Part shown: in pieces, positions 5,221-47,986 of the stretch
How positions within the stretch are numbered: position 1 is the stretch's first letter
Layout: every line of letters starts with the position of its first letter
Virus record (IMG/VR): IMGVR_UViG_3300003691_000001
Location: 1 to 64,000 of that record
Reading direction: 5' to 3' (one strand)
DNA length: 64,000 nucleotides
DNA from: a virus
Taxonomy: Duplodnaviria; Heunggongvirae; Uroviricota; Caudoviricetes
Notes under the pieces: generated by a model
Databases searched by the model: none
What the model saw: the letters and a program-made list of their open reading frames with translations, nothing else
Told to the model about the DNA's origin: nothing
Program-made: the position numbers and the translations under genes

Positions 5221-5310
5221 GTAGGAGCCCCTATAAGCCTCTGTGAGAGGTTTTAACGGGCAACCTATACCATTACTAGGGGTAGAGTCTACACCCCTCA
5301 CAGAGCAAGG
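5221..5310. repeat. Structured intergenic element, copy A. Shares conserved blocks with 47894..47986.
   Basis: Blocks gtaggagc, ctctgtgagagg..cccctcacagagcaa (long-range inverted repeat) and taggggtag(agtctac)acccc hairpin. Sits in a 94-nt gap between ORFs. Confidence 0.4.
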
Positions 5311-5318
5311 GGAGAAGG

Positions 5319-5570
5319 ATGAAGATATATGTATGCGATGCATGTGGTGCACAAAGTGAAAAGGGTATTAATAGGGTAGAGATTCCATGCCACCATTGGT
5401 CGTTTAATAATCAAACAGGATTCGTGGATAATGAGTTTAACCGTGTAAGCGGTAGACTTGATGTAGTAGATCTGTGTAACTCTTGTTACAACCTCGCATG
5501 GGCTCCATTGGCGAATACCATTAGAGAGATACGGTCACAAGTTCAGGGTGATAAAGATGCAGCCGTATGA
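5319..5570 (+). CDS. Small Cys-rich, zinc-ribbon-like protein
   Basis: CDAC...CHHW...CNSC cysteine pairs. Confidence 0.4.
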   Translation: MKIYVCDACGAQSEKGINRVEIPCHHWSFNNQTGFVDNEFNRVSGRLDVVDLCNSCYNLAWAPLANTIREIRSQVQGDKDAAV

Positions 5571-6009
5571 AGAAGTGTTTAGGGAGGTTATGTTCTACAT
5601 GGGATGCTCATGCTCCGGAGCTATAATTTTAATGGTGATAGGAATCATGTTCTCAGAGATCTTTAGGAAGGGTACCGTACAAAACCGTATACCCAGAGTA
5701 GTAGGTACCCATAGTAACACATGGAAGGATGGGTTTTGCTGGGAGTACGTGTGGAGTAGGCACCAATACCATGGAAAGAATGTAGATTATTTAGAGTGGC
5801 TAGATGACATGCTGGAAAGTAGTCATAATGCACCTCCTTTATGGCATCCAAGCTTTAAATGGGGGTTGACACACAACAAGAGTAATAAAACCTTACACCT
5901 GTCTTGGAGTAGAATCATCAGTGAGCCGGTATCGAATACAGAGACGAAGGAAACGACTTCGTACTGGAAAGAAATTAGAGACAAAGATTATAGGAGTCAT
6001 GTTCAATGA
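5548..6009 (+). CDS. Hypothetical membrane protein
   Basis: N-terminal hydrophobic helix GAIILMVIGIMFSEIF. Confidence 0.35.
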   Translation: MIKMQPYEEVFREVMFYMGCSCSGAIILMVIGIMFSEIFRKGTVQNRIPRVVGTHSNTWKDGFCWEYVWSRHQYHGKNVDYLEWLDDMLESSHNAPPLWHPSFKWGLTHNKSNKTLHLSWSRIISEPVSNTETKETTSYWKEIRDKDYRSHVQ

Positions 6010-6249
6010 GTGAAAAATTCATAGTTGAAAGTGTTGAGCAGTGCATATTTAGCAGAGTAGAGATAAAGGGCGAGACTTATGAGCGCCATGGGAAAGATAA
6101 ATGGCTACAGGATATGGACTGTTCACTAGAGTGTGTGCCTTTTCATATGGAGAAGCCTCTTGAAGAGGCTTATCAGAAGTATATACTAGAAGAGTTCAAT
6201 GATTATAGGACTCATGAACAAAATACATTCTTAGGTATCAAGGGGCTAT

Positions 6250-6720
6250 ATGAATAACACGTACCGAGTTATTGTAGCAGGAGGTAGGAAGTTCTGTTCT
6301 ATGCCAACCAACCCTAATAGTAAGAAGCGTAAGATGATGCGGTTCATGGGTGAAGAGATCCAAACAGCTCTTGCAAAAATCTCTGCAATCCTTACACCTG
6401 AGAGAGTGGCAGGTAGGAAGGTGGAGATTATATGCGGAATGGCCATGGGTGCAGACACTGTAGGCCGGTACTGGGCAGAGTTCAACCAGGACGTAACAAT
6501 CTCCTACTGGGAGCCAGATTGGTACCCTAAGGGACAATATTTCAAAGGTGCAGGCCACCTTCGTAACTGCGAGATGGGTGATCATGCTAGTGAAGAGGAT
6601 GGACTACTTATCGATTTTTATGATGGTGAAAGCCCTGGAAGTAAACAGATGATTAACTACGCTGCACAGATCGGCCTTGAAACAATTATTGTGCCATACG
6701 ATGCAGAGGATTATCCATGA
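6250..6720 (+). CDS. SLOG-superfamily protein (DUF2493/YspA-like)
   Basis: VIVAGGRKF and ICGMAMGADTVGRYWA, the GGR..GxxxGAD Rossmann signature of the SMF/DprA-LOG class. Confidence 0.55.
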   Translation: MNNTYRVIVAGGRKFCSMPTNPNSKKRKMMRFMGEEIQTALAKISAILTPERVAGRKVEIICGMAMGADTVGRYWAEFNQDVTISYWEPDWYPKGQYFKGAGHLRNCEMGDHASEEDGLLIDFYDGESPGSKQMINYAAQIGLETIIVPYDAEDYP

Positions 6721-6886
6721 AGTCTATACCATTAAGTGATGATTTTGTAGATGAGATCGTGACAGAACAGATGAAGTGGGTACACCTGGACGCAGAGGAT
6801 GTTAAGACCAGGGAAGCAGCACTGGTAGTACTTAGGTACTATATGCTTGAAGCGGATTTCCTTAAATGGCTGAAGGATAGAGAGTA

Positions 6887-9661
6887 ATGGCTGATGGACA
6901 TACAGGCTATAAAGGCAACAAGCCTAGCTATACAAGAAAGACTACTGCAAGATTTAAGGGGATACCTTTGCAAACCGTTGAAGATGTATTACAATTTAAA
7001 ATAGTTTCAATACCTGAACGAGGTATTACAACGAAGACAGCACAGCACTTTGGTGTTAGAACAGAAATGAGTAAAGCAGATGGACATACACCTGTTGCAC
7101 ATTACTTTCCATATACCGAAGATAGTAAGGTTGAAGGGAAAATTGAAAAGAAGGTTGTAGGGTATAAGAAGAGAGATCTTACAAAGCATAAGAAAGAGGA
7201 CGGCCACTTCACCACCATAGGGATTATGAAGCCTGAAGTAGTTGACCTGTTTGGTACAGACTGTGGAAACGTATCTGGAGGTAAGAAGGTGTGGACTACA
7301 GAAGGTGAGTATGATTCAATGATATGCTATCAAGCTATCAAGGCTGAACACTCATCAGGAAACCCCACTGTACTTTCCATAGGATTCGGTGCACCTAATG
7401 CTGTGAAGCATATTGGCCAGAAGCACTGTATGAAGTATCTGAACAAGTTTAAAGAGAAAGTCTTTGCATTCGATAATGACAAGGCTTCAATAGATGAACG
7501 TGCTAAAGGGATCATGCGCGGTAATGAAGCCACTGCAGCAGTGTATGGTCTTATTCCAGACTGTACCGTAGCTATGCTTCCAGACGGCAAAGACCCTTCA
7601 GAGATGTTTAATGATGACCCCTCCTCCTCTGAACTGTTCTGGGCACTGATGAAACCAATCAAATATAAGCCTGAAGGCTTCATCATGTATAGTGAAATAC
7701 GTGATAAAGCTGTTGAAATGCCTTACTTAGGTAAAGGCTGGCCATGGCCTACACTGTTCAAGAAGACTCTTGGACGCAGGCTTGGCGAAGGGTACTACAT
7801 CGGGGCAGGGGTTAAAGCGGGGAAGTGCTTCTTAAAAGGTACGGAAGTCCGTATGTTCGATGGAAGTGTCAAGAACGTTGAAGATGTTGTAACTGGTGAT
7901 GAAGTGATGGGATGGGACAGTACAAAACGTACTGTACTCTCTACTCACTCTGGCCGCGATGAGATGTACGAAGTAAAGCAAGCTCAAGGGAAGAACTATA
8001 TTGTTAACTCTCAGCACACTCTTGTACTGAGGGATTCGGGGAAGAAAGGTCAACTGGTTGAAAGATCTGTAGAGGATTTATATAATGCCTATGGAGACTC
8101 CAACCCTTTACGAGATTTGAAGGGATTTCATTCACCTATTGAATACCCTGAGAAACCTACTGGACTAGATCCTTACACCCTTGGCGTGTGGATGGGTGAT
8201 GGAAGTAGATGCGATAATAGACTTCATCTTGAAAAACAGGATAGTGAATACATCCTGCCGCGATGTTTACCGGTGTCACTGTTTGAAAGTAGCAAAGAGG
8301 GTATGCATGAAGGTGTTATAACAGGTCAGAAAGCGTACTTCTCTTCTTTCAAAGGAAGGAAGTACATTCCTGAGGATATCTTAACAAACTCCAGAAGAGT
8401 TCGTATGGAGGCACTTGCAGGATGGATAGATACAGATGGGCATAAAGATACTCGTAAAGGGTGTAGTTATGAGATTATAACTAAGGACTATTCGCTTGCT
8501 CTAACAGGACAAGAGTTGATGAGATCCCTTGGCTTAAGAGTATCGGTTCGACAGGTAGAGAAAGGTATTAAAGAAACTGGCTTCGTAGGGAAATACTATC
8601 GAATGCTCTTTTCAGGAGACCTGAGAGAAGTACCTATACAGGTGCCTCGTAAAAAATGTACAGAACCTCCTAAGAAAGACCCAACAGTTTCGGCAGTTAA
8701 GCTCTTTCACTTGAAAGAATGCCAATACTACGGATTTGAGACAGACGGAGATCACAAGTTTGTATTGAAGGATTATACTGTTGTACACAATAGTGAATTC
8801 GCTAACAAGCTCATCCAATACATCATCGAGAATGAAAAAGATGTAGACGGTAACGCGCAGAAGGTTGCAGTGTTCAAGTTTGAAGAGGAACCCGACTACA
8901 CTGTGAAGAAAGTTGCAGGGAAGTTCTACAAGAAAGACTTCACCAACCCTGAAAAGATTATCTTCATAGGTGATGAGGGAAAGGAAAAGGATATCTATGG
9001 CTATAACATTATCGATAAGTCAAGCTTCTTCACGCAAGAGGAGATGGAGTATGCTGTTGACACTGTAGGCCCTAACTTGGTAATGTACAATGCCTATGGC
9101 AGTTGTAGATGGGCAGAATTAAAAGGTGCTATCCGACACGCTGTACTGGTTGAACATATTGTAGATATTATTATAGATCCAATATCACGGTTGACATCTG
9201 GTATGACAGCCTCTGAAGCGAATCAAGAGCTTGAAATGTTTGCAGATGAAATTAGCAAGATGAGTAAAGACCTTGGGTTCACTTATTACTGCTTCTCTCA
9301 CCTTAAGCAGCCTACACATGGACCACTCCATGAATTTGGTGGTAAGGTGCAATCTGGACAGTTCACGGGTAGCCGTGCAATGACTCGATGCACCTACTAC
9401 ACTTTTGGTATAGAGCGTAATAAAGATCCTGAACTGGGTGAAAAGGTATTTAACACTAGTTACCTTGTAATACTTGATGACCGTAAGCATGGGAGGACTG
9501 CAAAGATTCCAATGTGGTATGACTCAGACACTGGAGATTACATTGAATCTAGCATGGAGTTCATTGAGGATGAAAGCTGTGCAACGTGGAAAGAGTGGAT
9601 AAACAGGCAAGCAGAGATTGCTGAATATGCCGATGTTCCTGGAGCAGATGAAGAATTTTAG
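6887..9661 (+). CDS. Primase-helicase (toprim plus DnaB-like helicase) containing an intein
   Basis: Toprim TEGEYDSMICYQAIK. Walker A GAGVKAGK | intein | SEFANK. Helicase motifs follow (LVEHIVDIIIDPIS, arginine-finger region). Confidence 0.8.
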   Translation: MADGHTGYKGNKPSYTRKTTARFKGIPLQTVEDVLQFKIVSIPERGITTKTAQHFGVRTEMSKADGHTPVAHYFPYTEDSKVEGKIEKKVVGYKKRDLTKHKKEDGHFTTIGIMKPEVVDLFGTDCGNVSGGKKVWTTEGEYDSMICYQAIKAEHSSGNPTVLSIGFGAPNAVKHIGQKHCMKYLNKFKEKVFAFDNDKASIDERAKGIMRGNEATAAVYGLIPDCTVAMLPDGKDPSEMFNDDPSSSELFWALMKPIKYKPEGFIMYSEIRDKAVEMPYLGKGWPWPTLFKKTLGRRLGEGYYIGAGVKAGKCFLKGTEVRMFDGSVKNVEDVVTGDEVMGWDSTKRTVLSTHSGRDEMYEVKQAQGKNYIVNSQHTLVLRDSGKKGQLVERSVEDLYNAYGDSNPLRDLKGFHSPIEYPEKPTGLDPYTLGVWMGDGSRCDNRLHLEKQDSEYILPRCLPVSLFESSKEGMHEGVITGQKAYFSSFKGRKYIPEDILTNSRRVRMEALAGWIDTDGHKDTRKGCSYEIITKDYSLALTGQELMRSLGLRVSVRQVEKGIKETGFVGKYYRMLFSGDLREVPIQVPRKKCTEPPKKDPTVSAVKLFHLKECQYYGFETDGDHKFVLKDYTVVHNSEFANKLIQYIIENEKDVDGNAQKVAVFKFEEEPDYTVKKVAGKFYKKDFTNPEKIIFIGDEGKEKDIYGYNIIDKSSFFTQEEMEYAVDTVGPNLVMYNAYGSCRWAELKGAIRHAVLVEHIVDIIIDPISRLTSGMTASEANQELEMFADEISKMSKDLGFTYYCFSHLKQPTHGPLHEFGGKVQSGQFTGSRAMTRCTYYTFGIERNKDPELGEKVFNTSYLVILDDRKHGRTAKIPMWYDSDTGDYIESSMEFIEDESCATWKEWINRQAEIAEYADVPGADEEF
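7826..8791 (+). mobile_element. Intein (322 aa) with a LAGLIDADG homing-endonuclease domain, inserted in the helicase P-loop
   Basis: N-terminal splice block CFLKGTEVRMFDG. LAGLIDADG motifs LGVWMGDGS and LAGWIDTDG. C-terminal TVVHN followed by +1 Ser. In frame with the host protein. Confidence 0.8.
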
Positions 9662-9664
9662 GAG

Positions 9665-10243
9665 ATGAGTATGAGTAACACAGATAACACATACAGCCAA
9701 GACTTCAGCGATGCAGAGTACAGACGGGCTCCTGTACCATACGAAGAGTTTGTAAGTACATCGGGTGAAACCATGTGCAGGCTTGAATGGGGGCAGGTAC
9801 AGAAAGTCTCCAACAGAGGCCTGACTACTCGCATTCTTAATCAAAAAGATGAGATAGAGCACATCTCAGAGACGTATATCAAGTTGAAAAGGGAGAAAGA
9901 AGGGGCTGTACATAGCCTTAAGCACTGTAGAGGACGACTCAGAGAGGAGTTGCAGCGGGGGGAAACCCTTCGTACAGCCCTCAAGCAAAGGTCTGAATGC
10001 CTTGAGAAAAGTCAAGGAGACCTGCATCAGGCTCTTGTACGAGTTGGAGACCTTGAAGATCAGGCACAGGCGATGCAAAAGGAGATCAAGGCTCAGATGC
10101 ATAAAGTAAACCTAAGTGAAACACTAATTTACGCCCAAAAAGATAAGATAGAAGTACTGGAACAGGACAAATCTGATGCATCTTGGGCTGCAGAGAATCA
10201 GAGGATTAGTGACATGAATCGAGAGGCAGGAGTATGGAGGTAA
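9665..10243 (+). CDS. Coiled-coil hypothetical protein
   Basis: Heptad-rich, E/Q/L-rich translation. Lies between the helicase and the polymerase. Confidence 0.4.
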   Translation: MSMSNTDNTYSQDFSDAEYRRAPVPYEEFVSTSGETMCRLEWGQVQKVSNRGLTTRILNQKDEIEHISETYIKLKREKEGAVHSLKHCRGRLREELQRGETLRTALKQRSECLEKSQGDLHQALVRVGDLEDQAQAMQKEIKAQMHKVNLSETLIYAQKDKIEVLEQDKSDASWAAENQRISDMNREAGVWR

Positions 10244-12807
10244 TAAAGATAGTAAGTAAACGTGTATGGTTAGGTGATATTGAAACAGATGGGTTGCTTG
10301 ATGAGTGCACGAAAGCTCACTGTTTTGTATTTACTGATGCCAAGAAAGAACATATACGGATCTTTGCAAGACTCAAAGACCTCACAGAAGAGTTCATTAA
10401 AAGTTTAAATGCATCATACAATATTGTATGGTATGCGCTAGAACAGTTTGGTGAATGGCTGCGGAGTGGTGAAGTATCTGGAATAGGTATTCATAACCTA
10501 TTCGGATTCGATGCACCTGCTATGGAGATGCTTGGATACATATCAGGGTACGATATAAGCCCTGAAGGTATTGACGGGTTAGACATAAAACTGTACGATA
10601 CACTGGCAATGTCTCGTACACTCTGGCCTGATCGTCCAATGCCTGCAGGATGCCCTGTTAAAGTGTGGAACCCTGTGAACAAGGTGTACAACACGATTGG
10701 TGCACATGGACTTATGGCCTGGGCATACCGTACAGCGGGTACAAAACCTGCAGTACACGATTGGAGAGACCAAGAAGCCTGGGTATACCTTGACCGGTGT
10801 GTAGAGGATACACTCAATACATCAGATACGTGGGGAATGCTACTTAAAGAGGCTACTAAGAAGGCCATAGGTGCTAAAAATGGATGGACAGATGCCCTGC
10901 GGCTATCAAACCAGTCATACTTTGGGATGTGTGAGCAGGAACGTACCGGCGTACCGTTCAGGATTGAAGAGGCTAAGAAGCTTGTAGTACATATTGATAA
11001 CCTTATGAAATCCATAGAAGATTTTGTAGAACCTAGGCTACCTGAACGTACCCTACCAGCCGGTGAACAGCTTAAATTCCCTGCAGAACCCTTTAAAGGT
11101 GATGGAGAGATAAGCTCTTATGGATGGGGTTACCTACGTAAGATAGGGTACGAGCTTGAAGAGAAGGCTTTTGAAAAGATAAAGTTCCCTGCTAACCCTT
11201 TCAAAGGGGATGGAGGTGTCAGTGCCTATGGAGCTAAATTCATGGAGTCTGAGGGACTTTCCACAGCAGATGAACTACGTGCCAGGGGTGAAGAGATCGC
11301 CGCTCACAACGCAATACAGCCCCTCTCAGGGGACTTATTGACACAGGGCAGGTTGGATCTTGAAAACAAGAAGACAATCGTCCTGAAAGCCGCTATGAAG
11401 CTGTCCAACCAGGCAGACATAAAGGAGTGGCTGTTCACAGCTGGGAACTGGAAGCCTCAACACTGGGGTACCAAGAACGTAACTGTAGACGGTAACAAGA
11501 AGGCTCGTAAAAAGGACGAGATTGCAGAGAAGCTGGGTGAATACTATGATAAGACTCGAGAGAGTGTATTCAAGTATGCCATCTATAAAGAACTTAAAAT
11601 GAACTTTCAGACTATGGACCGGTCTAAAGCTATTCAGAAGCTTGAACGGAAGGCTAGGTTCTTACCTACTACTCCAAAGTTTAAGGATCAAACGGGACAG
11701 TTATGCACAAACCTTGAGCATGTAGAGGGAGATCTTGCAGCAAGGATTGTAAAGTGGTTAAGTATGCGTAATCGACGCACAACATTGCTACCATTAGATG
11801 AGAAGAAGACCACAGGTTGGTTAAACCATCCACGACTTGCAATAGATGGCCGATTACCAGCTGGATCAAGTGGACTGGCTAACACGACTAGACAAAAACA
11901 CAGAACGGTCGTTAACGTGCCTAAGGCTGATCCAACAGTTCTCCTTGGAAGGGAGATGAGAGCCCTATACTATGCACCAGAGGGATGGATGTTCCAAGGG
12001 GTGGATGCCGATGCATTAGAGGCACGTGTAGGTGGTTGGTATGCATGGGTTACAGGAGGAGATGGAGGGCTATACGCTAAAAAGGTATTAGCTCCTAAAG
12101 GTCCTAATGAATTTCATACAGCTAACGCCAGAGATTACTCCAATGCAGCTGGGTTTGAGATAACCCGAAGCAAAGGTAAGAATATTACATATGGTGTAAT
12201 GTACGGAGCCGGTGCAGCGAAGGTTGCAGCCATGCTTGGAATCTCTGTAGTACTTGCACAGAGGGTAATTGATGCGCTATGGGATAACAACCCAGGGTTG
12301 AAAAAGTGTAAAGAGAAGCTAGAGAAACATTGGGAAGCAACAGGTAAGCGATACATACGTGGCATAGATGGCCGTAAGATCTATACACGTTCAAAGCACA
12401 GCTTGTTAAACTGCTTGTTCCAATCAACGGGTGCAATAGTAATGGACTTAGCAGGTGTTATCACTCGTGAAAAGATTGCAGAAGAGGGTTTACAAGACTC
12501 TTATCAACGTGTAATATATATGCATGATGAATACCAGAACCTAATCAGAGAGGATATGGTGGAGGTTAAAAAGTTTTCAACTAAAACACTTGCAGAAGCT
12601 TTTGATGATAGCAAGATGTGGTCAGGGATTAAGGAAGATAATAATCCTGACCATGATGAAGAGTACGATGGACCATGTACTATTTACTACTCAAGAGCAG
12701 CTGAGATCAGTGCATGGGCTATTGAAGAAGCTGGAAAGCGACTTGGATCACCTGTACCCATCACAGGTGGATATGATTTTGGTATGGACTGGAGTGAAAC
12801 GCATTGA
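10234..12807 (+). CDS. DNA polymerase, family A, T7 gp5-like
   Basis: Exo I DIETDGL. Motif B RSKGKNITYGVMYGAGAAK. Motif C YMHDEYQ. Motif A region LYYAPEGWMFQGVDADALEAR. Confidence 0.85.
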   Translation: MEVIKIVSKRVWLGDIETDGLLDECTKAHCFVFTDAKKEHIRIFARLKDLTEEFIKSLNASYNIVWYALEQFGEWLRSGEVSGIGIHNLFGFDAPAMEMLGYISGYDISPEGIDGLDIKLYDTLAMSRTLWPDRPMPAGCPVKVWNPVNKVYNTIGAHGLMAWAYRTAGTKPAVHDWRDQEAWVYLDRCVEDTLNTSDTWGMLLKEATKKAIGAKNGWTDALRLSNQSYFGMCEQERTGVPFRIEEAKKLVVHIDNLMKSIEDFVEPRLPERTLPAGEQLKFPAEPFKGDGEISSYGWGYLRKIGYELEEKAFEKIKFPANPFKGDGGVSAYGAKFMESEGLSTADELRARGEEIAAHNAIQPLSGDLLTQGRLDLENKKTIVLKAAMKLSNQADIKEWLFTAGNWKPQHWGTKNVTVDGNKKARKKDEIAEKLGEYYDKTRESVFKYAIYKELKMNFQTMDRSKAIQKLERKARFLPTTPKFKDQTGQLCTNLEHVEGDLAARIVKWLSMRNRRTTLLPLDEKKTTGWLNHPRLAIDGRLPAGSSGLANTTRQKHRTVVNVPKADPTVLLGREMRALYYAPEGWMFQGVDADALEARVGGWYAWVTGGDGGLYAKKVLAPKGPNEFHTANARDYSNAAGFEITRSKGKNITYGVMYGAGAAKVAAMLGISVVLAQRVIDALWDNNPGLKKCKEKLEKHWEATGKRYIRGIDGRKIYTRSKHSLLNCLFQSTGAIVMDLAGVITREKIAEEGLQDSYQRVIYMHDEYQNLIREDMVEVKKFSTKTLAEAFDDSKMWSGIKEDNNPDHDEEYDGPCTIYYSRAAEISAWAIEEAGKRLGSPVPITGGYDFGMDWSETH

Positions 12808-12821
12808 TAACTTTACACCGT

Positions 12822-12845
12822 AAAGGGGATGGAACCCCTTTTGTA
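12822..12845 (+). terminator. Intrinsic terminator-like hairpin after the polymerase gene
   Basis: aaaggggATGGAAcccctttt, i.e. a GC stem plus a T run. Confidence 0.5.
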
Positions 12846-13936
12846 AACTTACAGGGACAGTGCGTGTTCAAGAAGGAGGGTGTGAACTTTGCACTCACCA
12901 TTGAACAGATGAAGGAAATGCAAGCAATACTTCAGAAGACTTTAGAGGAGGTGAAAGAGGATGGAAGATCCATTTAAGATTAAAGTTCTCATAGACACAG
13001 ATTCAGAGTTAGTACCATCTGATCATATCGCTATGAGACATATGAGGAAGTGGGTTCAGGCATGGAGAGATGATCCAGGTGGGGACCCTTACGTTAAAGT
13101 ACGTACAGGGGCAATGCTGACATGTATGCAGACTCTTCACTTTCTTAAGGAGGTAGAGATCACAGGAATATACTATAGAGGTAAGGTAATCCAAGTAGAT
13201 GAGCAAGGCTTCCTAATGGAAACTCTTTACGTATTTAACGAAGGACTTCAACTTTGTAAGAATCTAGTTATAATGCGAGGGGCGGGTGGTTGAAAACATG
13301 AAGATAGGTCTTAAATGTTTTAATCAAAGATCATATGAAGGTCACTGCTGCTGTAATTGCAGTGCACAGATTGAAATACGGTGTCACCCTGGTAACACAG
13401 GGGATGCAAAGGGTCTAACAAGTGAAACATTTGCATGGGCGTGTCAACGTACACACTATAACCATGCAATATTCTTCACGGGTAAACACGGTATGTGCGA
13501 AATGCACACAACAGAAAGGAGAAAACCATGGAGTTATGGGTAATAGGAGTAGTATCGTTTGTAATTGTAACCATCATATTTTGGCCAGTAATTAAAGGAT
13601 CACCTGGTCCAAGGTTATCAGGGTTTGATGCTTCCAATGCAGCTATAGCAGGGAGTGTATGCTTTGACTGATAAGATAACGGTTACACAGCTCACCCCTT
13701 TACATGAAGATAGCGAATGCTACTGGGATGAACAACAGGAGTATGTCAGAATCCTATTTAACGGAGATGACCAGATGTATGTGGGTGAAGGTGAGCCCGA
13801 AGATATGACTCTGGGCAGAAATCTCAGTGATCTATATAATGTCATGGGCATGCTAGAAGAGATGTATGAAGCCGGTAAAGCCGGTAAAGAAGTTATATTT
13901 AAGTGTGAACAACCCGTTAAAGGATAGGAGAGATGT

Positions 13937-14875: not shown

Positions 14876-15099
14876 GGTTCTTCATAGGTCTCTTAGTAGC
14901 CGTATTCTTCACTATCATGAGTGAATTTGAATAATGGTTAGAACAATTAATTGGTGGGTAACACCACCTATAGGAGGTGAAGTGGAAACCGATGATACAG
15001 ATGTAACAGGTGCCGGTGCATGGGCTGTATGTTTAGTATTCTTAATCCTATCACTAAGTGCTATCATGCTTCAACAAATAGCAGCAGGGACATACTAAA

Positions 15100-15444: not shown

Positions 15445-15585
15445 AGTAAGAACTGTCGCTGTAATCTGTGTAAATACGTCTCCATATACTGATATATCAT
15501 TAGGAAAGGGATATTTTGCAGTGGATAATATGGATGGGACATATACCTTGGAAGATGATAATGGTACCCAGGCAACATACCCTGA

Positions 15586-19716: not shown

Positions 19717-19725
19717 GGCTTAACA

Positions 19726-19749
19726 GTGCAGGGGTGAAAGCCCTTGCAC
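19726..19749 (+). other. Intergenic hairpin without a T tract, a possible RNase III or stability site
   Basis: gtgcagggGTGAAAGcccttgcac. Confidence 0.3.
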
Positions 19750-19992
19750 ATCACTAAGGAGGTAAGATGATAGGTGTAATAGGAGCTGTAATCCTACTAA
19801 CCATTGCATGGAAACTCAATAAGGTTCGACGGAAGTGGAACAAAAGAGTGGAGGATGGAGTGAGTGTAGGAGAAGAGTTAATCGACACGATGTTTGAAAA
19901 TGACACAGAGGATCTTAAGATCATACTGGAAAACAAACAAAAGAATTTAAACAAAAAGAGAGACCGATAGGTCTTGCATAGGAGAGATATAG

Positions 19993-21240: not shown

Positions 21241-21245
21241 GTAAA

Positions 21246-21273
21246 CACCCCTCCTCGAAAGGGGAGGTATTTA
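21246..21273 (+). terminator. Terminator-like hairpin
   Basis: cacccCTCCtcgaaaggGGAGGtattt. Confidence 0.4.
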
Positions 21274-21282
21274 GGAGAGAGC

Positions 21283-22856: not shown

Positions 22857-22859
22857 TAC

Positions 22860-30004: not shown

Positions 30005-30448
30005 TTATTATGGGTGCCATCCTGGCACCCCTTTATAGGAGAGTTACATGGGTTTACTAGACTACTTTAGAAATAAGAAGGCCACTAGAAGAGCAAAGAA
30101 GATTGCATCTAGGAGACGTACTAGTGGAGGACACAAACGGTACGTGGATGAAGGTAATCATGCTTTGAATGATCTAGTTATCGGAGATTTCCCCTTCGAA
30201 GGTGATGAGGACTTGAATACACTTTCACTACCTAAGTCACCATTGATGGAAGTGGATCACAGCATCTTGGACGTACCTACTACAACCAGTGTAGAGACTA
30301 CACCTTCATATGTACAACCCTATGTTGCACCAGCACCAGAGCCTACACCTGTTACATACAGTGACAATTCATCAAGCTCAAGATCTTCATACGGTGAAAG
30401 CTTTGGAAGTGATTATGGCAGCAGTGATTCAGGCGGGAGCTTCGATTA

Positions 30449-30967
30449 ATGTATCTTGAAATATCTGGAAGGGTCACAGGGAAGAGCACAAGGATGATTA
30501 AAGCATTCTTGCACCACCCTGCCGAAAATAAGAGGATAGTATGTTGCACTCACCGAATGGCAATGCAGGTGGCAATGGAATATGGGATTGATAACCGGTT
30601 TATTATCTGCGCTGAGCAGGTTAAGTACGGAGGATATTTAGGACAGTATATTCTTTTCTGGGATAATTTTGATTCACTGCCTACATCCTTCAACGGAGAA
30701 AGGTACATAAAGAAAGGAGACTATTATTCTACTACCCCTAGTTTCTTAAGAGGTCCTGAAGACTTCCAGAAGTGGATGAACGGGAAACCAGATATGCTTC
30801 TTACACTCATACATAAGTGCAACCACAAGTACAAGCACTTTTCATGGGGGAGTCATCCAGGCCTTGACGATGCTAAGCACTCTATGTGCAAGGGTCAACA
30901 GCTTGCACAAATAAAAGGTAAGTTTGAATGCACCTTTAAAGACTTTACAGAGGGGATGAACAAGTGA
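30449..30967 (+). CDS. Hypothetical protein with a P-loop-like GRVTGKST
   Basis: Degenerate Walker-A-like motif near the N-terminus. Confidence 0.3.
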   Translation: MYLEISGRVTGKSTRMIKAFLHHPAENKRIVCCTHRMAMQVAMEYGIDNRFIICAEQVKYGGYLGQYILFWDNFDSLPTSFNGERYIKKGDYYSTTPSFLRGPEDFQKWMNGKPDMLLTLIHKCNHKYKHFSWGSHPGLDDAKHSMCKGQQLAQIKGKFECTFKDFTEGMNK

Positions 30968-33848: not shown

Positions 33849-33862
33849 AGATAGGAGGATGG

Positions 33863-34060: not shown

Positions 34061-34226
34061 TGAACCGATGGGGTTATTAATCCCTTTGATGATCTCTCTT
34101 GTTGTAGCCAGTATAGGGGTGGGGACGCTGTTCTACCACCTAAACCTATACCTTGAGTGCATGAATACAACCACTGATTCATGGAGATGCATTGTTAGCC
34201 TTATGATTTCCAAGGATTCATCATGA
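34041..34226 (+). CDS. Small membrane protein
   Basis: LLIPLMISLVVASIGVGTLFY helix. Confidence 0.3.
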   Translation: MSTHAGNEPMGLLIPLMISLVVASIGVGTLFYHLNLYLECMNTTTDSWRCIVSLMISKDSS

Positions 34227-40250: not shown

Positions 40251-41395
40251 AATGGAAATCGTACACAAAGAATATAAGAAGTATCAAATAGGTCATAGAG
40301 TGGGTATTGATGGTGAAATTGTTATTTATAAGTATATTGATCTAGAAGGGAACCTCATAAACCCCATGAAAGAATTCCTGGCGTTAGGTAAGGTTAAGGC
40401 AGAGGTTATTGAAGTGGCTATGGGATTTGTAGATTTCAACCATGCAATGGATTATATTGACACTGTGATCATTCCCGGTGTTACTCCTCCAACCATTAAG
40501 GTGGTATGATGAGAAAGAAATTTAAGATTATGTACCCAGAGGATCATGCAGATCCTAAGAAGGCAGGTAAGCCTTTTCACGGCGGTGGTAAGGATATGGT
40601 AGTGATGAATGGCAGTGGGATATTCTTCCTGTTTAACGGTGAACAGTATTACCCCTCCATCAGTAAGTTATCTAGTGTACTTCCTAAATACGATGTAGTT
40701 TGGAAATAGGAGAGTGAAGATGTTAAGAATTGAAGTGAGAAGTATTGATGATACCCAACAAGAGGTTGTATTCCAACGGGACAGATCGGGTCCACTGGAT
40801 GCTGTAGAGGCTGTAGCACTTGCACAGGTTATGATTGAAGCTGCCGCAGAGGTTTTATTAGTGGCAGAGGCATCGGGGTTGAAGAATGGAGAAGACTAAG
40901 GTTACAATAGGCCCGTACAAGGGATTTACAGCGAATATAACGGTACCTCTCACACGCCTTGAACTCTATGGTAAGGTTAATGATGCAGGGTCTGATCTGA
41001 TATTATTACATGGTGGTCACATCCTGGAGATCATTCAAGATTTTGAAAGCGCTATAGATGATTATATTAATACCAAAGAAGAACTGGGAGATGTAAAGGT
41101 GAGAAGGCTATGAATAAGATTCTAATAGGGCCTTATGATACTAACGGTGTAGCTGCAGGAGAGTACACACATAAAGAATATTTACAAGCAGTGCTTGACA
41201 AATGCCCTGAGGATGTTACAATTGACCTCCTTAGGCAATACACCGGTTCATGGGAATCATACGCTTACATGTGTGAACTGGACAGCAGCAATGCAGAGCT
41301 TTTAATAGACCTGACCCATCACAATAAGGGGTACAGTCAACTATGGTTAGGAGAGAGTTAATGGATAAGATTGTAGTAGTGGTAAGGAGTTACAA

Positions 41396-42004
41396 ATGAC
41401 ACCATCTACGTCCAACGCAGCAGAAATTAATACCCTTAGAAGAAGGATAAGTCACCTTGAAACAGTTGCAGAGAAGCAACAACGTATGCTGCATGACCTG
41501 TATGAGACAGGAGTGAAAACCCTTCAGCTGCAGAACCAGGTTCTTATAGAGGCGCTTGCAGAGCCTGCTATGAAAGTGGTTATAGAGGACCTTGCGCCAG
41601 GTGTATTGAAAGAGTTAGGATTAAACCCTGCAGGGTACCCGATTAAATCTCTGCAAGAGATCTTTACCACCTCGTATAACTGGTTAATGACCCAGGGTAA
41701 AGATTCTGTAGACAGTAATGGCACTCTAGTGTACCATGGTGTAGACGGGTTAAAGTGTTCCATAGGCATTTTAATGAAAGATGAATACAAAGACCGTATC
41801 GATGTGGCCAGTGGCAATATGAATGACATTGATGAAGGCGAGGTGTTAAGCATCCTTGAAGATAGTGGATGCCCCAGGGCTTATAAAGACTTCTATAAGC
41901 GTCTATTGAGGATACATGATGATTGCTCTGTAGAAGACTGGGACAGGCTCTATAAAGAGCTTGCAGAAGAATATGGGCTAGCGCCCTTTAAAGGAGGTGT
42001 ATGA
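41396..42004 (+). CDS. Hypothetical protein, 202 aa
   Basis: ORF with RBS. No motif recognised. Confidence 0.4.
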   Translation: MTPSTSNAAEINTLRRRISHLETVAEKQQRMLHDLYETGVKTLQLQNQVLIEALAEPAMKVVIEDLAPGVLKELGLNPAGYPIKSLQEIFTTSYNWLMTQGKDSVDSNGTLVYHGVDGLKCSIGILMKDEYKDRIDVASGNMNDIDEGEVLSILEDSGCPRAYKDFYKRLLRIHDDCSVEDWDRLYKELAEEYGLAPFKGGV

Positions 42005-43134
42005 TGGGTTTTCAAAAGCGAGTAGTAATAGAAAAAGTTGTGGATAGGATTATACTTATCACATTGAAGGCGGATTTCCACAGTGCTTGTCAGAAGGCTT
42101 ACTCCGATAACCTAGGGACAGAGGTTAGCAGGAGCACTGCTAAAGAGGTTTCCTATTATATCATCTGGGGTGCACCCCCTTCGAAGATCATGAAAGCGCT
42201 TGACATAGATAAAGATGCTGTTGAGAAGGTTATCGATTGCTTCTGGAAAGTATTCCAAGACCACCAAAGGTATTTAAGATGAAACGTATCTATGACAAGT
42301 CTATGTATGACACCCAAACAGCTATCTACAAGTCAATAGAAGACTTAGAAGAGGGGTTGGAAGAGTCTGTAGCCAGGGCTCAAGACCTTTACAATGAGTT
42401 CATTGCGGAGAGTAACCTACTTAACCATGATGATTATGACCTGTGGAATGCTGGGGATGTAAGCCGAGTAGATGAACACGGTGTAGAGATCTCTTGGGAA
42501 GTTACATGGAGGTATGGAGGCCATGCAGAGGGTGAGTATACTATCCCTTTGAAAGCTTTACTAGATGAAACATGGGAAGACGGTGTAAGGGAAGCAGCGC
42601 ATGCTTTCTTAAAATGGAGACGTGCAATATGAATCTGACAAGGTTAAAAAGAAAGCTCCGCCGACTGAAGGCCAAAAGAGATGGTGTGGAGGATAAACAT
42701 AAAGGGAATGAACGGAACTACACTTACTATGGCGGTTGGGATCTTGGGCACCTTCAAGGTCAGATATGCGTGTTTGAAGATTATATAGATGATATTGAAA
42801 CTCTTCAACTAAAGCTTGAAGCGATTGCAAGAAAGCTGGAAGAGTCTCATACAAGCATGGATGTGTGGACTGTAATTGAAGAAGCTCGTAACATAGCTTT
42901 AACGGAGGTGTGTGATGGAAATGCATGACGTAGTACGAAAGTTGATAGGGCCTGTAGAGCCGGTAGGGTGTTCAGCTACAGATAGTAAAAGGTATGATAA
43001 CCTGTCTGAACAGATGGATTTAGTTAGTGAACTCATAGCGGAAATCTACAGGATTTCAATACAGTGTTCAGATAGCTATCAGAGCAGTGTGCAGATTGCA
43101 GGTAAGCGCTCTACTGACTTCTTGAAAGAGATGG

Positions 43135-43731
43135 GTGATTACTGTGGATAAGCTAACATACTTAGAAAGGTTTGAATGGGCTATTGAACACCTTACAGCA
43201 GCCTCTGTACCTACACATCTGGTACAGGATTGGATCGATGAAACTAATGATAACCTGCAGGACTGGGTAGGCAGTCAAGAGATACCATGGTGGTGTCAGA
43301 ACATTGCAATCATTGAAGCAGCACTAGCTATGGCTAACAGCCCTGTAGAAGGTGCACACGATGAAATCGATTACTCAGTTCCATGGGACAATGTAGAAGA
43401 GGTGGTTGCACCCCCTGTGCTCAGTGTAACCTTTACAGAGGATGAGGCTGATACCATTCAGAACCATGCACGTTCTGTTGAAGAAGTTCTCATAGAAGAG
43501 CGTAAAGGAGCACCACAGGCTAAGTACGTGATGTGCGTTCCTACAGGCTGTGAAGAGTGGAACCCTCTTACAGAGAAGATTGAACCGGTTCCTGAACATC
43601 TCGTAGGGCACTGGATGATGGAGTATGCTGCAAACTTAAACTACCGGGGTTTCAGGGAGTGTATCAAAAGGGATTCCTGGGTACGGTGCCATGCAGAGGC
43701 TGTAACAGAAATGCAATGGGTGGAAGGATGA
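43135..43731 (+). CDS. Hypothetical protein, 198 aa
   Basis: ORF in dense small-gene array. Confidence 0.4.
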   Translation: MITVDKLTYLERFEWAIEHLTAASVPTHLVQDWIDETNDNLQDWVGSQEIPWWCQNIAIIEAALAMANSPVEGAHDEIDYSVPWDNVEEVVAPPVLSVTFTEDEADTIQNHARSVEEVLIEERKGAPQAKYVMCVPTGCEEWNPLTEKIEPVPEHLVGHWMMEYAANLNYRGFRECIKRDSWVRCHAEAVTEMQWVEG

Positions 43732-44654
43732 CCATTACCACATTTGAAGAGACACCGCTCAAGCGTAAACTCCTCCTGAAGATGTACCAGAAGAAAGTCA
43801 ATGAAGCGATAGAATGGAACTTTGGATACTGGGACCATAATAATCCAAGCCTGGACAAGTGGTTCAATGAAGTCTTAAGGCTAAGGCCTATAGTAGAGAA
43901 AGAAGACCCTGAATGGTATGAATACTATGGAAGGGCTATAGTAAATGACTAAAGGTAAGAGAATCTATATAGTATAACATAATTTCTAAAGGGAAGGATG
44001 AGAGGTGTGTATGAGGAATAGAATAAGCGATATCTACCAGTTGTTTGATGAAGTGGAAGATAAACTTGGTGAAGATAATCCCGTGTTAGAGGATCTAATA
44101 TACGATATGAATCTGGCTATGGAAGGGGTTGATTCTGTAGAAAGTAGTCTGAAGCGTATTCTTAATGATACCTCAGAGGTTAAATCTTAATGTGTAAAAA
44201 GAAGCCTACAGTACACAACGTGAAGCAAGGGCAGACCGTTTACATGATATCTGGTTGGCCTTGCTCATATGGTTACCACTTTACCATGGAGAAGTATTTT
44301 ATTTATGGTAAAAGGGTTGCACCTCCTGAAGAGGGGTGTATAATAGAGCAAATGTCAATCACGTTGCTTGAAGGCATCCTGGAACGGTTTGGCAATGAGG
44401 GGATACACTTCTCAAGGCGTAAAGCAGAAACAGAACTTAAAAGGAGAAGAGCAGAATGAACACATATATTATAAAGTATGAATCAGAAAGTTGTGACAGA
44501 TACACCTTTAAATGCAAAGGGTTCAGTAAACCCAGCTATGGAGATGTTGAAAAGATGCTCTTGGCTGCATCACCTGAAGAGGCTTTAGACGAGAATAGTA
44601 TGGGAGGAGAGTGGGATATTGTAAGCTTTGATAACTTAGAAGATATTACTTTAA

Positions 44655-45566
44655 ATGGAGGAGGGGACAAGTAGAATGTATAAAATAATCTTATTGTTAT
44701 CCTCTATACTATTATCAGGGTGCTTCAGTGCACCAGATGAACGGTATACATATCTAACAGCCACTGATGCACAATCAGGGGATACACAAACACTCGATGT
44801 AGATATCCTACTACCTCCAACCGGTAGTGATACACTGCCTAACGGTAAACGTGGAGCCATTGTATTCATCCATGGGGGAGCATGGGATTCAGGAAGTACA
44901 AATCAGGTGGCAACCTTTGCAGATACTGCACGTGAGATGGGATTCTTCACCATGGCCATGGATTACCGTCTAACCAGTGTAAGGGTCGAAGGCAGGGGTG
45001 AACGTGGGGTACTTTATCCATGGCCTACACAAGCACAGGATGTACGGTGTGCACTAGGATGGCTTGCAGAAAATGCAGATACCTATAACGTAGATGTGGA
45101 TGCTATAGCACTTATAGGTGAATCCTCTGGTGGACAGATGGCATTCATGGTTGCAGAGAATGATTACCTTACAGATGAGTGTCCTTATCAAGGGGATGTA
45201 GATATTGCATTAGCCGTGTCTCGTTCAGGACCTACAGATATTGAACATTGGTACAACCTTGGAGGATTCACTAATACGTGGGTACAAGACTTGTTAAACA
45301 AGGATAACCCTACGGTAGATGAACTTCGTAGTATTAGCCCTGTATTCAATATAGGTGATGATAGCACTACAAGTATTTTACAACAACATGGTGGAAAGGA
45401 TAGTATTGTAAAGGAAGAAGTTGTACTATCTTACCCTGATGCACTGGATGCACTTGGAAGACAAAATGAATACTTGCATTATCCTGATACAGGACATACA
45501 CTAGACACCTCTAGGCAAGATGCACTAGACTGGATAAATACACAATTAAAGGGGTACACAGAATGA
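44655..45566 (+). CDS. Secreted lipoprotein esterase/lipase (alpha/beta-hydrolase fold-3)
   Basis: Lipobox LLSGC. Oxyanion motif FIHGGAW. Nucleophile GESSGG. C-terminal D/H. Confidence 0.65.
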   Translation: MEEGTSRMYKIILLLSSILLSGCFSAPDERYTYLTATDAQSGDTQTLDVDILLPPTGSDTLPNGKRGAIVFIHGGAWDSGSTNQVATFADTAREMGFFTMAMDYRLTSVRVEGRGERGVLYPWPTQAQDVRCALGWLAENADTYNVDVDAIALIGESSGGQMAFMVAENDYLTDECPYQGDVDIALAVSRSGPTDIEHWYNLGGFTNTWVQDLLNKDNPTVDELRSISPVFNIGDDSTTSILQQHGGKDSIVKEEVVLSYPDALDALGRQNEYLHYPDTGHTLDTSRQDALDWINTQLKGYTE

Positions 45567-45856
45567 AGAATATTATAGCAGCAGCAGTATTATCAATCAT
45601 GAGCACAGGAGCTTTAGCAGCAGGGGTATGTCATATTCCAAAGGATTGTGAGTTCATCTCTAGCGAGTTCTCAACTGGTGGAGGGGATAGGGCTATGTAT
45701 ATCATGGAAGTGGATTGCAAGATCGATGGTGAAGTCACTAAGTACATAGATACTGAAGTATCCATAGGAGGATTCTTCGGGGTGGGACGTATCACAGCGC
45801 CTAAGAAGGTGATCTTTAAGCGTACAACTAATGACAGTATGTCGTGTGACTACTAG
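45563..45856 (+). CDS. Small secreted protein
   Basis: Signal peptide MKNIIAAAVLSIMSTGALAAG. Confidence 0.4.
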   Translation: MKNIIAAAVLSIMSTGALAAGVCHIPKDCEFISSEFSTGGGDRAMYIMEVDCKIDGEVTKYIDTEVSIGGFFGVGRITAPKKVIFKRTTNDSMSCDY

Positions 45857-47192
45857 AGATCGAAGAATGTAAAATACAGAGGTCTGTATGGTGCAGAGGC
45901 CTACACGAATGATTAAATCATTAAAGGAACTGGAGAAGACCAGCCCATTCATAGGAAGATATAGGTGGGAGTTGGCCGACAATAATAGAAAGATACACTT
46001 TAAGAAATTCAAGCGAGAACACCCTTCAACATTAAAATTAAGTAGTGAGTTCAGGTTCGGTCTGTACAACTAACTATAAGGAGAATAAAATGAGTATTAG
46101 AATCGAAAAGAGTATCCAGTGCGATAACTGTGAAGAGGAATTGATTGTGGATTCACCATATCCTGCAAAATACGTGCTTGAGTTGAAATCCGTGGATGTA
46201 GGTATTAATACATCTGGTGCAACATTCGCTGTCTGTGTACATCCAGCCATAAAAGATACCATGCATTTCTGTGGCTTTATATGCCTTGAAAATTGGATAG
46301 CAGATAGAAAGTCGCTTAGGTGATCAGCAGGGGGAGGTAGTTTTGAAAAAGATAGATGAACTCGAAAGATCTAAGACACTACTGACGTTTCTATGGCAAA
46401 AATATGATGCCGGTGGAATATCAATGGGGCGTAGCTATGAGGCTGTAGTCCTAGAGGCTGTTATGGAATTACTAGGCCCTTCATCGGAAGATTTGAGCCG
46501 AGATCATGGCGATATAATGGATGAAACAAGAAGTTACCTTTCATCAAAGAGGGCTGAAAAATTAGGACTTAAGTGTAGGGAGATAAAATATCATGAGGAT
46601 TGAAAAACAACTAATTGATTTAGATACATCTAAAGTCGATTTCGATAATAGACATTGGGGATGGTGTGAAGGAGGTCACCCCTTACGCAGCGGGGAGTAT
46701 GCAATTACCTATATTGCTGATGATGACTACCTCAATGAAACAAGGTACGCCCTTCCGAAATGCTTGAATGAGATGATGAATTTAAAAGACAAGTATGGTG
46801 CAGAAGAAGCCAAACGAAGAATTCGGCAAGCACTTGCATAGACTTGAAGAGAGGCTCTTAAAAGATGGTGAAGAGTGTAGCTTTGGTTGCAGTCACCATG
46901 TAACACATAGGTGTGAAAAATGCGGTCGCTTCTCCTCACGAGGAGAAGCAACTATTTTCACTAATGAAGAGTACTTGGTATCGGAGGAACTCAATATGGG
47001 TTTACGTGAAAAAGTTCAGGAAGCACTGGACAATGCAAAAGAAAATGGCTACAATTTCGAAGGTTGGTCACCAGGACAGATAGCCAGTGACATGATCCGA
47101 CATGATAAAGGCTTGGAAGATGAGAATTTTTGTGAGTTAGGATGCATTATCCTAGGATTGCAAAATGAAAACAAACAAGACGTGTAGATGTT

Positions 47193-47220
47193 GCAATAAC
47201 ACGGCTAAAATTGGAGAATA
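47193..47220 (+). promoter_or_regulatory. Repeated promoter/RBS-like motif, copy 1
   Basis: GCAATAACACGGCTAAAATTGGAGAATA immediately 5' of the ATG at 47224. Confidence 0.4.
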
Positions 47221-47223
47221 AAA

Positions 47224-47451
47224 ATGCCAAGAGTTAAAAGAAATACAGACGCAACTTTAAGGTTACGGTGTGATGACCCAGAAGACTCGTTCACCGTTAG
47301 TTATACAAATATGGGGGAGCCTTTTCGGGAGGGAATCGAAATCGGTATTGGAAATGCGGAATTCAATAAAGATGTAAGGGTGATGCTTGAGGATGGCGAG
47401 GCGAGGCAATTACTAGGCTTACTTTTAAAGCTCTATCCAATTAAATCGTAG
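47224..47451 (+). CDS. Small hypothetical protein
   Basis: Preceded by the conserved motif and a GGAG RBS. Confidence 0.4.
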   Translation: MPRVKRNTDATLRLRCDDPEDSFTVSYTNMGEPFREGIEIGIGNAEFNKDVRVMLEDGEARQLLGLLLKLYPIKS

Positions 47452-47458
47452 TTCTGTC

Positions 47459-47489
47459 GCAATAACGCGACTAAAAACTGGAGGATACT
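47459..47489 (+). promoter_or_regulatory. Repeated promoter/RBS-like motif, copy 2
   Basis: GCAATAACGCGACTAAAAACTGGAGGATACT, near-identical to copy 1, 5' of the ATG at 47490. A weaker third variant lies at 47745..47789. Confidence 0.4.
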
Positions 47490-47744
47490 ATGGAATTTTG
47501 GGTAAAGCTCCTTGTGGTTGAGGACACTAAAAACCAGGATGCTAGAGACGACTTACAGGCTAATTGTACTCACATCACGCACGATTATTGGCTGTTTGAA
47601 GGTGACGAAGAGGCCTTGGATGACGGCATTACATTTTCGATCATTGGCGAGGAAGCTATCAGCGGAACTGGAGATTTAACAAAATCACAGCTTAAGGTAA
47701 TGCTCCTGGACACATACGGGCTAACTGATGGCCTTCTAAGCTAA
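47490..47744 (+). CDS. Small acidic hypothetical protein
   Basis: Preceded by motif copy 2. Confidence 0.4.
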   Translation: MEFWVKLLVVEDTKNQDARDDLQANCTHITHDYWLFEGDEEALDDGITFSIIGEEAISGTGDLTKSQLKVMLLDTYGLTDGLLS

Positions 47745-47849
47745 AGAGCTTTGCTGTCGAAGAGGGAAATTCAAATATTGGAGGATAGAATGCAAAAATA
47801 TATAAAGAAACCAATAGTAATCGAGGCAATTGTAAATACTAGACAAAAT

Positions 47850-47887
47850 AAAGCCCCAACACTTTACAGTGCCAGGGCTTATTTATA
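47850..47887. terminator. Terminator-like hairpin at the convergent junction
   Basis: AAGCCC...GGGCTT stem followed by ATTTATAT. Confidence 0.45.
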
Positions 47888-47893
47888 TCTACA

Positions 47894-47986
47894 TCCGCTG
47901 TGAGGCTCTCAGTGCCTGTAGGAGCAGTGACCCAGGTACCCTTAGGGGTAGCCAGGGGTACATAGTGAAATCCTCTCACAGAGCAA
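47894..47986. repeat. Structured element, copy B. Shares blocks with 5221..5310.
   Basis: gctgtgagg...cctctcacagagcaa inverted repeat, gtaggagc and taggggtag blocks. Lies between convergent gene blocks. Confidence 0.4.

Follow-up and report, generated by a model that had tools for sequence, protein, structure and literature searches.

What are the two similar, roughly 90-nt elements that lie in intergenic DNA of an uncultured tailed phage, and how did they come to be there? The stretch in question comprises 64,000 nt (positions 1 to 64,000 of IMG/VR virus record IMGVR_UViG_3300003691_000001; hereafter the window) and is part of the 152,036-bp metagenomic phage contig ENA ERZ27335247 k119_43701, in which each position is 33,448 higher than in the window. 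A reading of its letters alone, the sequence-only reading, had described the two copies, which we call A and B, as members of one conserved structure family, and had offered as possible functions a small structured RNA, a processing or termination module, or a homing or recombination site. We find that A and B belong to a family of elements with members in other phages, that they are inverted relative to each other on the DNA, and that they stand in an insertion-like context. Our reading of these observations, a tentative one in which doubt still slightly outweighs confidence, is that A and B, oppositely oriented and diverged in sequence, are copies of a palindromic insertion element that is non-coding and ~95-110 nt long, resembling miniature transposable elements with inverted repeats (MITEs) or repetitive extragenic palindromic (REP) elements.

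Both copies are found where the sequence-only reading had placed them, A in a gap of the plus-strand gene block and B at the convergent junction beside a terminator, although their boundaries are better set at 5219-5312 and 47896-48003 than at 5221..5310 and 47894..47986. Genes 5027-5224 and 5319-5570 are separated by a gap of 94 nt, which is taken up by A, spanning from the stop codon of the former gene (TAG, 5222-5224) to the ribosome-binding site of the latter. B is placed between the stop codon of a lipase gene, 48004-48726 (TAG; plus-strand CTA at 48004-48006), and the terminator hairpin at 47851-47880. This terminator is a separate, adjacent feature outside the element and is orthologous to terminators that follow the lipase stop codon in relatives; a terminator scan of A and B found no intrinsic terminator inside either of them. 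The terminal inverted repeats of A read CTCTGTGAG / CTCACAGAG plus CCCCT / AGGGG, those of B CGCTGTGAGGCTCT / AGGGCTTCTCAGCG and CTGTGAG / CTCACAG. In both copies CTGTGAG lies upstream of CTCACAG, and the long-range inverted repeat can close a stem, as had been proposed.

The words by which the similarity had been noticed are all present: CTCACAGAGCAA at 5297 and 47975, GTAGGAGC at 5221 and 47918, and TAGGGGTAG at 5277 and 47943, with a further copy of the latter at 30732 on the minus strand. Their sharing is not beyond chance. A shared 12-mer, 9-mer and 8-mer within 100 nt of each other occur at 24 position pairs in the window, against a mean of 9.5 in second-order Markov shuffles, GTAGGAGC by itself has a chance-level frequency, and a blastn comparison of A with B yields only E = 0.05-0.4. 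The case for a common origin is carried by other measures. Four of the seven CTGTGAG/CTCACAG sites in the 64 kb fall into the gaps of A and B, while the window has roughly 20 gaps. Local alignment of A with B reaches a z of about 4.6, a score attained by one of 500 dinucleotide shuffles in direct and by none in inverted orientation, corresponding to a p of about 0.002 in either orientation in alignment shuffles of the two gaps. The core of the 5' block of A agrees with B(-) at 23 of 29 bases, and a hand count on the multiple alignment gives 26 matches at 37 ungapped positions for the 5' blocks of A(+) and B(-).

That A and B align about equally well both ways is explained by their arms, which are near-palindromic (CTCT-GTG-AGAG compared to CTCT-CAC-AGAG); this accounts for the 'different block order' of the sequence-only reading, which is a by-product of palindromy. 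The direct-orientation MAFFT alignment is misleading in our judgement, despite a mean column identity of 72%. The orientation was decided by the outside copies and by a covariance model built from these copies only (R2; a second model, R1, includes A and B). In the window, R2 ranked B(-) first with 20.2 bits and A(+) second with 19.1, with A(-) following at 15.0 and B(+) unlisted. Since the outside copies were found with arm-derived patterns, agreement in the arms is circular, but the strand preference is not. A and B are thus inverted on the DNA, each pointing the same way as its local genes, and not direct copies as first assumed. The GTAGGAGC of A corresponds to CTGAGAAGCCC in B (47993-48003, minus strand) and not to the GTAGGAGC of B; the latter lies within the second degenerate arm at 47915-47925, which occupies the place of the 3' arm in the family alignment. 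A third copy was not found by R1 in the window or an extra 4.7 kb of L001.

Members outside the window were sought by pattern scans of IMG/VR and the JGI metagenomes, which returned mostly chance matches. The arm-based scans gave about 50 matches each, near a rough chance estimate, and only L006, L014 and the group of L034, L045, L046 and L050 showed similarity beyond the pattern; a 15-mer scan likewise yielded chance matches for the most part, and a scan with the 5' block added L145 as its only new member. Most metagenome matches were set aside, as they are located in coding or G+C-rich sequence. The elements that stood out have a common layout, seen in A(+), B(-), L014(+), L093(-) and L057(+): a ~35-nt block composed of CTrRGArGCCC, TrTAw, nGC, CTCTGTGAGAGG and wTTT comes first, then a variable stretch of about 25 bases, then an ArGGGTA box, and distally the CTCACAG arm, which can form a closing stem of 7-9 bp. 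In the inner palindrome of B (47935-47953) this box is present in both orientations. B(-) is identical to L014 and L093 at 23 of 24 bases and to L057 and L056 at 28 of 31, well beyond the 10 bases of the first pattern, while A(+) aligns with L014(+) via CCCT.TA..GCTCTGTGAGA, ATACCAT and AGGGGTA, and has the exact 15-mer AAGCCTCTGTGAGAG in common with L006. The L014 element recurs unchanged in L096 and L104 and has variants in L093 and L145. The elements of L014/L093, L057 and L006 are all intergenic, and the loci that bear them have no proteins in common with the window. Going by these sequence comparisons, related elements are present between genes in no fewer than three phage lineages that are unrelated to one another. 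Among 185,579 bacterial and archaeal genomes, the B-type block gave only three matches, which are coding and chance-like.

Several of these outside elements merit description in their own right. L006 is a 28-kb contig of an unrelated phage, which has two hairpin copies (1795-1888 and 4177-4284) between minus-strand genes; these are near-perfect ~40-bp hairpins of ~90 nt with z-scores of -6 to -7 and a shared arm AAGsCTCTGTrAG, and are possibly related to the A and B elements. Between them, four pairs have changed in a compensatory and three in a half-compensatory fashion. L014 and L093 are near-identical save for a 25-nt apex, which is swapped for another small palindrome. Together with the compensatory changes in L006, this exchange indicates that pairing has been maintained in at least part of the family. 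L057 carries a B-like element (425-565, minus strand) that is flanked by an intrinsic terminator on one side and by a promoter close to consensus (TTGACA-17-GATAAT) on the other, with the conserved block ending nine bases before the -35 box; it is antisense to the neighbouring genes. A 57-nt element of the form CTGTGAGCGATCGAAATT..AAGATGGAT..ATCCATCTT..CTCACAGAGCG is found on jumbo-phage contigs of 95-289 kb (L034 8953-9009, L045 692-748, L046 832-888 and L050 38-94); the L045 and L050 copies share one such contig, on which they point in opposite directions, and the inner hairpin of L045 carries two changes that are not compensated. Finally, one phage contig, L028, harbours two CTGTGAG / CTCACAG hairpins ~300 nt apart (2808-2909 and 3095-3206), which may form a further subfamily.

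The clearest indication that such an element was inserted comes from the lipase gene beside B. Its homologues in L143 (60% identical) and L144 (49%) are syntenic, being the last gene at a convergent junction as in the window; in L143, moreover, a 178-residue gene lies just upstream of the lipase, an arrangement that matches the window in position. In both relatives, no more than a few bases separate the lipase stop codon from a terminator, AAAAGCCCC...GGGGCTTTTT, downstream of it. A terminator of this kind stands ~108 nt from the stop codon in the window, and the stretch between the two is B. Model scans of L143 and L144 gave no match. As B is absent between stop codon and terminator in these relatives, it looks like an insertion. 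As to A, homologues of gene 5319-5570 could be detected in two loci, L002 and L003, and each overlaps its upstream gene and leaves no gap. Both copies thus look like insertions, which makes the homing or recombination site the best fit among the functions that had been offered.

By comparison, a conserved structured RNA is not shown. Rfam 15, searched with the whole window at gathering thresholds, gave no match, and permissive searches around A and B returned only noise at E ~1 or higher (mir-6129, NsiR1 and sar, the latter two on the neighbouring terminator); for eight related loci, Rfam yielded nothing relevant, and ARAGORN found no tRNA or tmRNA genes in the window. Folded as single sequences, A and B reach z-scores of -0.6 to -1.8, which are not significant, and the set of A, B, L014, L093 and L057 covers -0.6 to -1.9. 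The consensus contains no helix other than the closing stem, and among the nine pairs of this stem not one changes on both sides, so that the compensatory changes that a conserved stem would have led one to expect are missing. GGGGTAG, which had been named as part of an internal hairpin of A, pairs downstream in A and upstream in B, indicating that the inner hairpins are not homologous as hairpins; that of A (5279-5297) is not drawn in the minimum-free-energy fold. The lack of covariation, the weak z-scores and the missing Rfam family leave the earlier claim half standing: A and B do represent a family rather than a plain duplication, as the outside elements confirm, but what is supported is a family of sequences rather than a conserved RNA structure.

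In the insertion-element reading, the element would be defined by its ends, with the ~35-nt block containing CTCTGTGAGAGG at one end and the complementary CTCACAG at the other, while the interior would be variable, usually with a small hairpin of its own, and it would have been acquired by insertion into intergenic DNA. The occurrence of similar elements in unrelated phages would imply horizontal spread, or mobilisation by an enzyme recognising the ends or the folded hairpin. We infer this mobility, and likewise any effect at the RNA level. As each copy is sense to its local genes, it would be transcribed as a stem-loop within an mRNA. The stem base of A, formed by CCCCU (5228-5232) and AGGGG (5308-5312), would overlap the Shine-Dalgarno region AAGGGGAG of gene 5319-5570 and lie within reach of a ribosome stopping at UAG 5222-5224, such that translation of this gene could be coupled, through the stem, to ribosomes that complete the gene before it. 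The stem-loop of B would be part of the 3' untranslated region, just before the terminator.

A number of points weigh against this reading. The two copies in 69 kb (window and 4.7 kb of flank) are the only ones, and their interiors barely align, whereas recently active MITEs normally occur in many near-identical copies. A search by eye of A, B and the L006 copies, the exact ends of which are uncertain, gave no convincing terminal direct repeat that could represent a target-site duplication, and no transposase or recombinase was identified in the window or the related loci, or found to be common among these loci. The comparison for A is weaker than that for B and offers no clean empty site, as the upstream genes in L002 and L003 are not homologous to that of the window. 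The family links of A have a p of ~0.01 after rough correction (our own estimate from the alignments), those of the L046 group are weaker still, and L145, an L014-like element, has an uncompensated change in its closing stem. To this must be added the circularity of the arm agreement among outside members, which were retrieved with patterns derived from A and B.

Of the competing explanations, the one that we take most seriously, while considering it unlikely, sees A and B as selected cis-acting RNA: a stem-loop in the polycistronic mRNA serving as a processing site (for RNase III, as in T7), a stabiliser or a translational coupler, with the 5' block bound by a host or phage factor. The sense orientation of both copies to their operons, their start at or just after a stop codon, and the overlap of the A stem base with the ribosome-binding site of gene 5319 would fit such a function, and the compensatory changes in the L006 copies as well as the closing stem, as the only consensus structure, are in line with it. 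Against this stand the results on structure given above, from the closing stem without covariation to the weak z-scores and the fruitless Rfam searches, and the uncompensated change in L145; furthermore, the stems pair better in the antisense strand (-35.2 compared to -31.2 kcal/mol for A), other phages carry the element in either orientation with respect to their genes, and it is missing at orthologous junctions. If, instead, the elements acted as double-stranded DNA, they could be protein-binding sites such as operators, origin iterons or partition sites, with a dimer on the near-palindromic arm CTCT-NNN-AGAG, two to four per element. Invariant arms with an internal dyad symmetry, freely varying interiors, an orientation unfixed relative to genes, and the L057 block abutting the -35 box of a promoter would all agree with this. 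We nevertheless regard it as distinctly unlikely, given that the spacing of the arms ranges from 43 to about 70 nt, that no DNA-binding protein is common among the loci, so that unrelated phages would need the same regulator, and that the compensatory changes in L006 point to pairing rather than to sequence read-out; moreover, the arms are invariant in part because of how members were found.

A long shot of comparable weight goes beyond the insertion-element reading: A and B could be mobile hairpins of an undescribed, structure-defined class that move between unrelated phages, with a recombinase or nuclease recognising the folded single strand and inserting it just after stop codons. Recognition would proceed via the conserved ends and leave the interior free, as in integron attC sites or the ends of IS200/IS605. 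That we are simply looking at unrelated intergenic hairpins which share a 7-9-bp arm and a few words by chance is very unlikely in our estimation. The chance-level sharing of words, the blastn values and the absence of compensatory changes would fit, and we estimate that about two 7-bp inverted-repeat pairs with identical arms are expected in 64 kb; the concentration of core sites in two gaps, the shuffle statistics, the A(+)/B(-) match over the 5' block, the matches of both copies to outside elements beyond the search patterns, and the placement of both copies at the top by R2 speak against coincidence. The least probable proposal, to which we give hardly any weight, places a promoter for a phage or alternative polymerase in the 5' block and makes B(-) a small-RNA gene, with a transcript of ~110-130 nt ending at 47851-47880. 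A conserved ~30-nt block followed by variable sequence, a good terminator about 85 nt after B(-), and the common direction of both copies and their local genes have the appearance of such a unit. However, no sigma-70-like promoter was called by a scan at A or B, the block is, by our own comparison, unlike the consensus of sigma-54, T7, SP6 and T4 late promoters, unrelated phages would need the same polymerase, and among the proteins of the window, which are only partly annotated, we noticed no RNA polymerase.

How, then, does the putative insertion element compare to known systems? With MITEs it shares its small size, its non-coding nature, its intergenic location, the boundary by inverted repeats of about 9-20 bp, the absence at an orthologous site in relatives (for B, in L143 and L144) and the presence in unrelated genomes. 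It differs from them in that multiple near-identical copies are replaced by two diverged ones with conserved ends and variable interiors, in that no target-site duplication was found, and in that no parent insertion sequence or transposase is known. Like REPs and bacterial interspersed mosaic elements (BIMEs), A and B are intergenic imperfect palindromes able to form hairpins in mRNA or single-stranded DNA; for REP elements, a role in stabilising or terminating mRNA has been proposed (PMC3733652). REPs, though, measure 20-40 bp, occur in high copy number on bacterial chromosomes, have a GTAG/CGTC tag and are associated with a gene for a REP-associated tyrosine transposase (RAYT), whereas the elements described here measure 57-110 nt, are of low copy number and were found only in phages; GTAG is seen at the 5' end of A only, with CTGAG in B and CTAG in L014. 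The mycobacteriophage ultra-small mobile elements MPME1 and MPME2, reported by Sampson et al. in 2009, are said to be ~440 bp long, to contain a small open reading frame (ORF) and to occur in near-identical copies; they are likewise small mobile elements with short inverted repeats, sporadic in phage genomes, but have no sequence similarity to ours.

The likeness to integron attC sites is one of architecture only, with ends conserved as an imperfect inverted repeat and a center variable in sequence and length. Sites of this type are about 57-141 bp long, a range similar to that of the elements here, work as a folded single strand and have the end boxes RYYYAAC / GTTRRRY. These boxes are absent here: the ends read CTCTGTGAG ... 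CTCACAGAG, with no GTTRRRY, and neither an integrase nor a cassette array is present. The RNase III hairpins of T7-like phages are comparable as intergenic stem-loops in polycistronic transcripts, with no U run and few per genome, but A and B are branched, with closing stems of 7-9 bp, rather than simple long hairpins; the stem of L006 reaches about 40 bp. The elements are, furthermore, mixed in orientation in other phages and missing at orthologous junctions. Compared by eye to consensus sequences, A and B did not fit T7 class II terminators, lambda boxA, N4 hairpin promoters, CRISPR-repeat mimics, P1 parS, or the template and variable repeats of diversity-generating retroelements, just as they had not fitted the promoters named above or attC. 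A lambda-type nut site follows an early promoter and consists of a boxA of the form CGCTCTTTAACAA and then boxB, a short hairpin; only GCTCT is shared with it (CGCTCTGTGAGAC in L014), and B lies at the end of an operon, before a terminator.

In bacteria, small mobile or palindromic elements that do not code for protein have been described well, whereas descriptions from phages are poor. If the family is confirmed, it would mark the exchange of DNA among uncultured phages that are not related, and provide an example of an inserted hairpin reshaping the spacing and the translation signals between packed phage genes. For annotation, the lesson would be that a gap of this kind can be an insertion and is not necessarily a regulatory RNA. 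At present, this is a small descriptive finding; its features are collected in the table.

Table. Parts of the two elements and the adjacent terminator, with positions in the window
Feature	Position	Strand	Basis or remark
Copy A, whole element	5219..5312	+	R2 match 5219-5309(+), 19.1 bits; R1 match 5220-5312
Conserved 5' block of A, GTAGGAGCCCC-TATAAGC-CTCTGTGAGAGG-TTTTAAC	5220..5257	+	aligns with B(-), L014, L093 and L057
P1 5' arm of A, CTCTGTGAG; pairs with 5297-5305	5239..5247	+	fold and arm-site search
P1 3' arm of A, CTCACAGAG	5297..5305	+	fold and word search
Inner hairpin of A, GGGGTAG-agt-CTACaCCCC; holds ArGGGTA box	5279..5297	+	read from the sequence; box column in alignments A3/A5
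Outer stem P0 of A, 5' strand, CCCCU; pairs with AGGGG 5308-5312	5228..5232	+	minimum-free-energy fold
Outer stem P0 of A, 3' strand, AGGGG	5308..5312	+	minimum-free-energy fold
Copy B, whole element	47896..48003	-	R2 match 47895-48002(-), 20.2 bits; B(+) unlisted
Conserved 5' block of B, CGCTGAGAAGCCC-TGTATTG-CTCTGTGAGAGG-ATTTCAC	47965..48003	-	L014 and L057 matches, alignment A3
Distal arm of B, CTCACAG (plus strand CTGTGAG); pairs with 47975-47981	47898..47904	-	arm-site search
Second degenerate arm of B, plus-strand CCTGTAGGAGC, minus-strand GCTCCTACAGG	47915..47925	-	alignments A2, A3 and A5
Inner palindrome of B, GGTACCC-tta-GGGGTAgCC	47935..47953	.	folds and alignment A3
Intrinsic terminator hairpin, 13 pairs, then TATTTTGT	47851..47880	-	terminator scan

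As to coding capacity, a peptide encoded in the elements was considered and rejected, since there are only short ORFs, with no family match and none credible inside A or B. Next to B, a 37-codon ORF (47790-47903, plus strand) with a strong ribosome-binding site, GGAGG at 47781, crosses the terminator hairpin 47851-47880, and its TGA stop codon (47901-47903) lies inside the distal arm of B; this ORF matches no family and so is possibly not a gene.

The genes around the two copies form a plus-strand block, with small genes and replication genes (primase/helicase, family A DNA polymerase, ligase, exonuclease and ribonucleotide reductase), and a minus-strand block from 48004, which encodes large proteins with immunoglobulin (Ig)-like and fibronectin-like repeats. 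A close relative of the phage was found neither among GenBank phages by blastn with both flanks nor in IMG/VR with the flanking proteins, and a search of IMG/VR with TAGGGGTAG..CTCACAGAGCAA found nothing; for the DNA polymerase, the best homologues are 62% identical and the next at most 46%.

Some further features of the window lie apart from the two elements. Upstream of A, gene 3201-4220 (plus strand) encodes a product that matches the Pfam Gad1 family (PF25705), which is linked to phage counter-defence, and the next gene, 4201-4860, a lipase or thioesterase-like hydrolase. The primase/helicase gene (6887-9661, plus strand) contains an intein at residues ~309-566, between the primase and helicase parts, where Pfam recognises a Hint domain (Hom_end_hint, E = 1e-19) together with a homing endonuclease domain of the LAGLIDADG type. 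A 93-residue ORF at 42001-42282 (plus strand), 30 kb from the full polymerase gene 10234-12807, resembles a fragment of a DNA polymerase of family A (Pfam PF00476, below the cut-off with E = 6.5e-5) and is 36-38% identical to the polymerases of L004 and L005. Four other short gaps (19717-19766, 19955-19992, 21241-21282 and 30005-30047) have a common layout, in which a G+C-rich hairpin is followed by a few bases, (T)TAGGAGAG and a start codon; this may represent a weak terminator or processing hairpin beside a ribosome-binding site. On the minus strand, genes 55119-56219 and 56242-57363 are adjacent tandem paralogues, neither with a Pfam match, which have repeats of 300 nt and 168 nt in common (71-72% identity, offset ~1,120 nt). 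A family of 77-nt repeats is represented at 50502, 51816, 59330 and 60719, inside the minus-strand genes 50147-52732 and 57373-61743; both of these encode large proteins with Ig-like He_PIG domains, of which the 1456-residue protein has eight.

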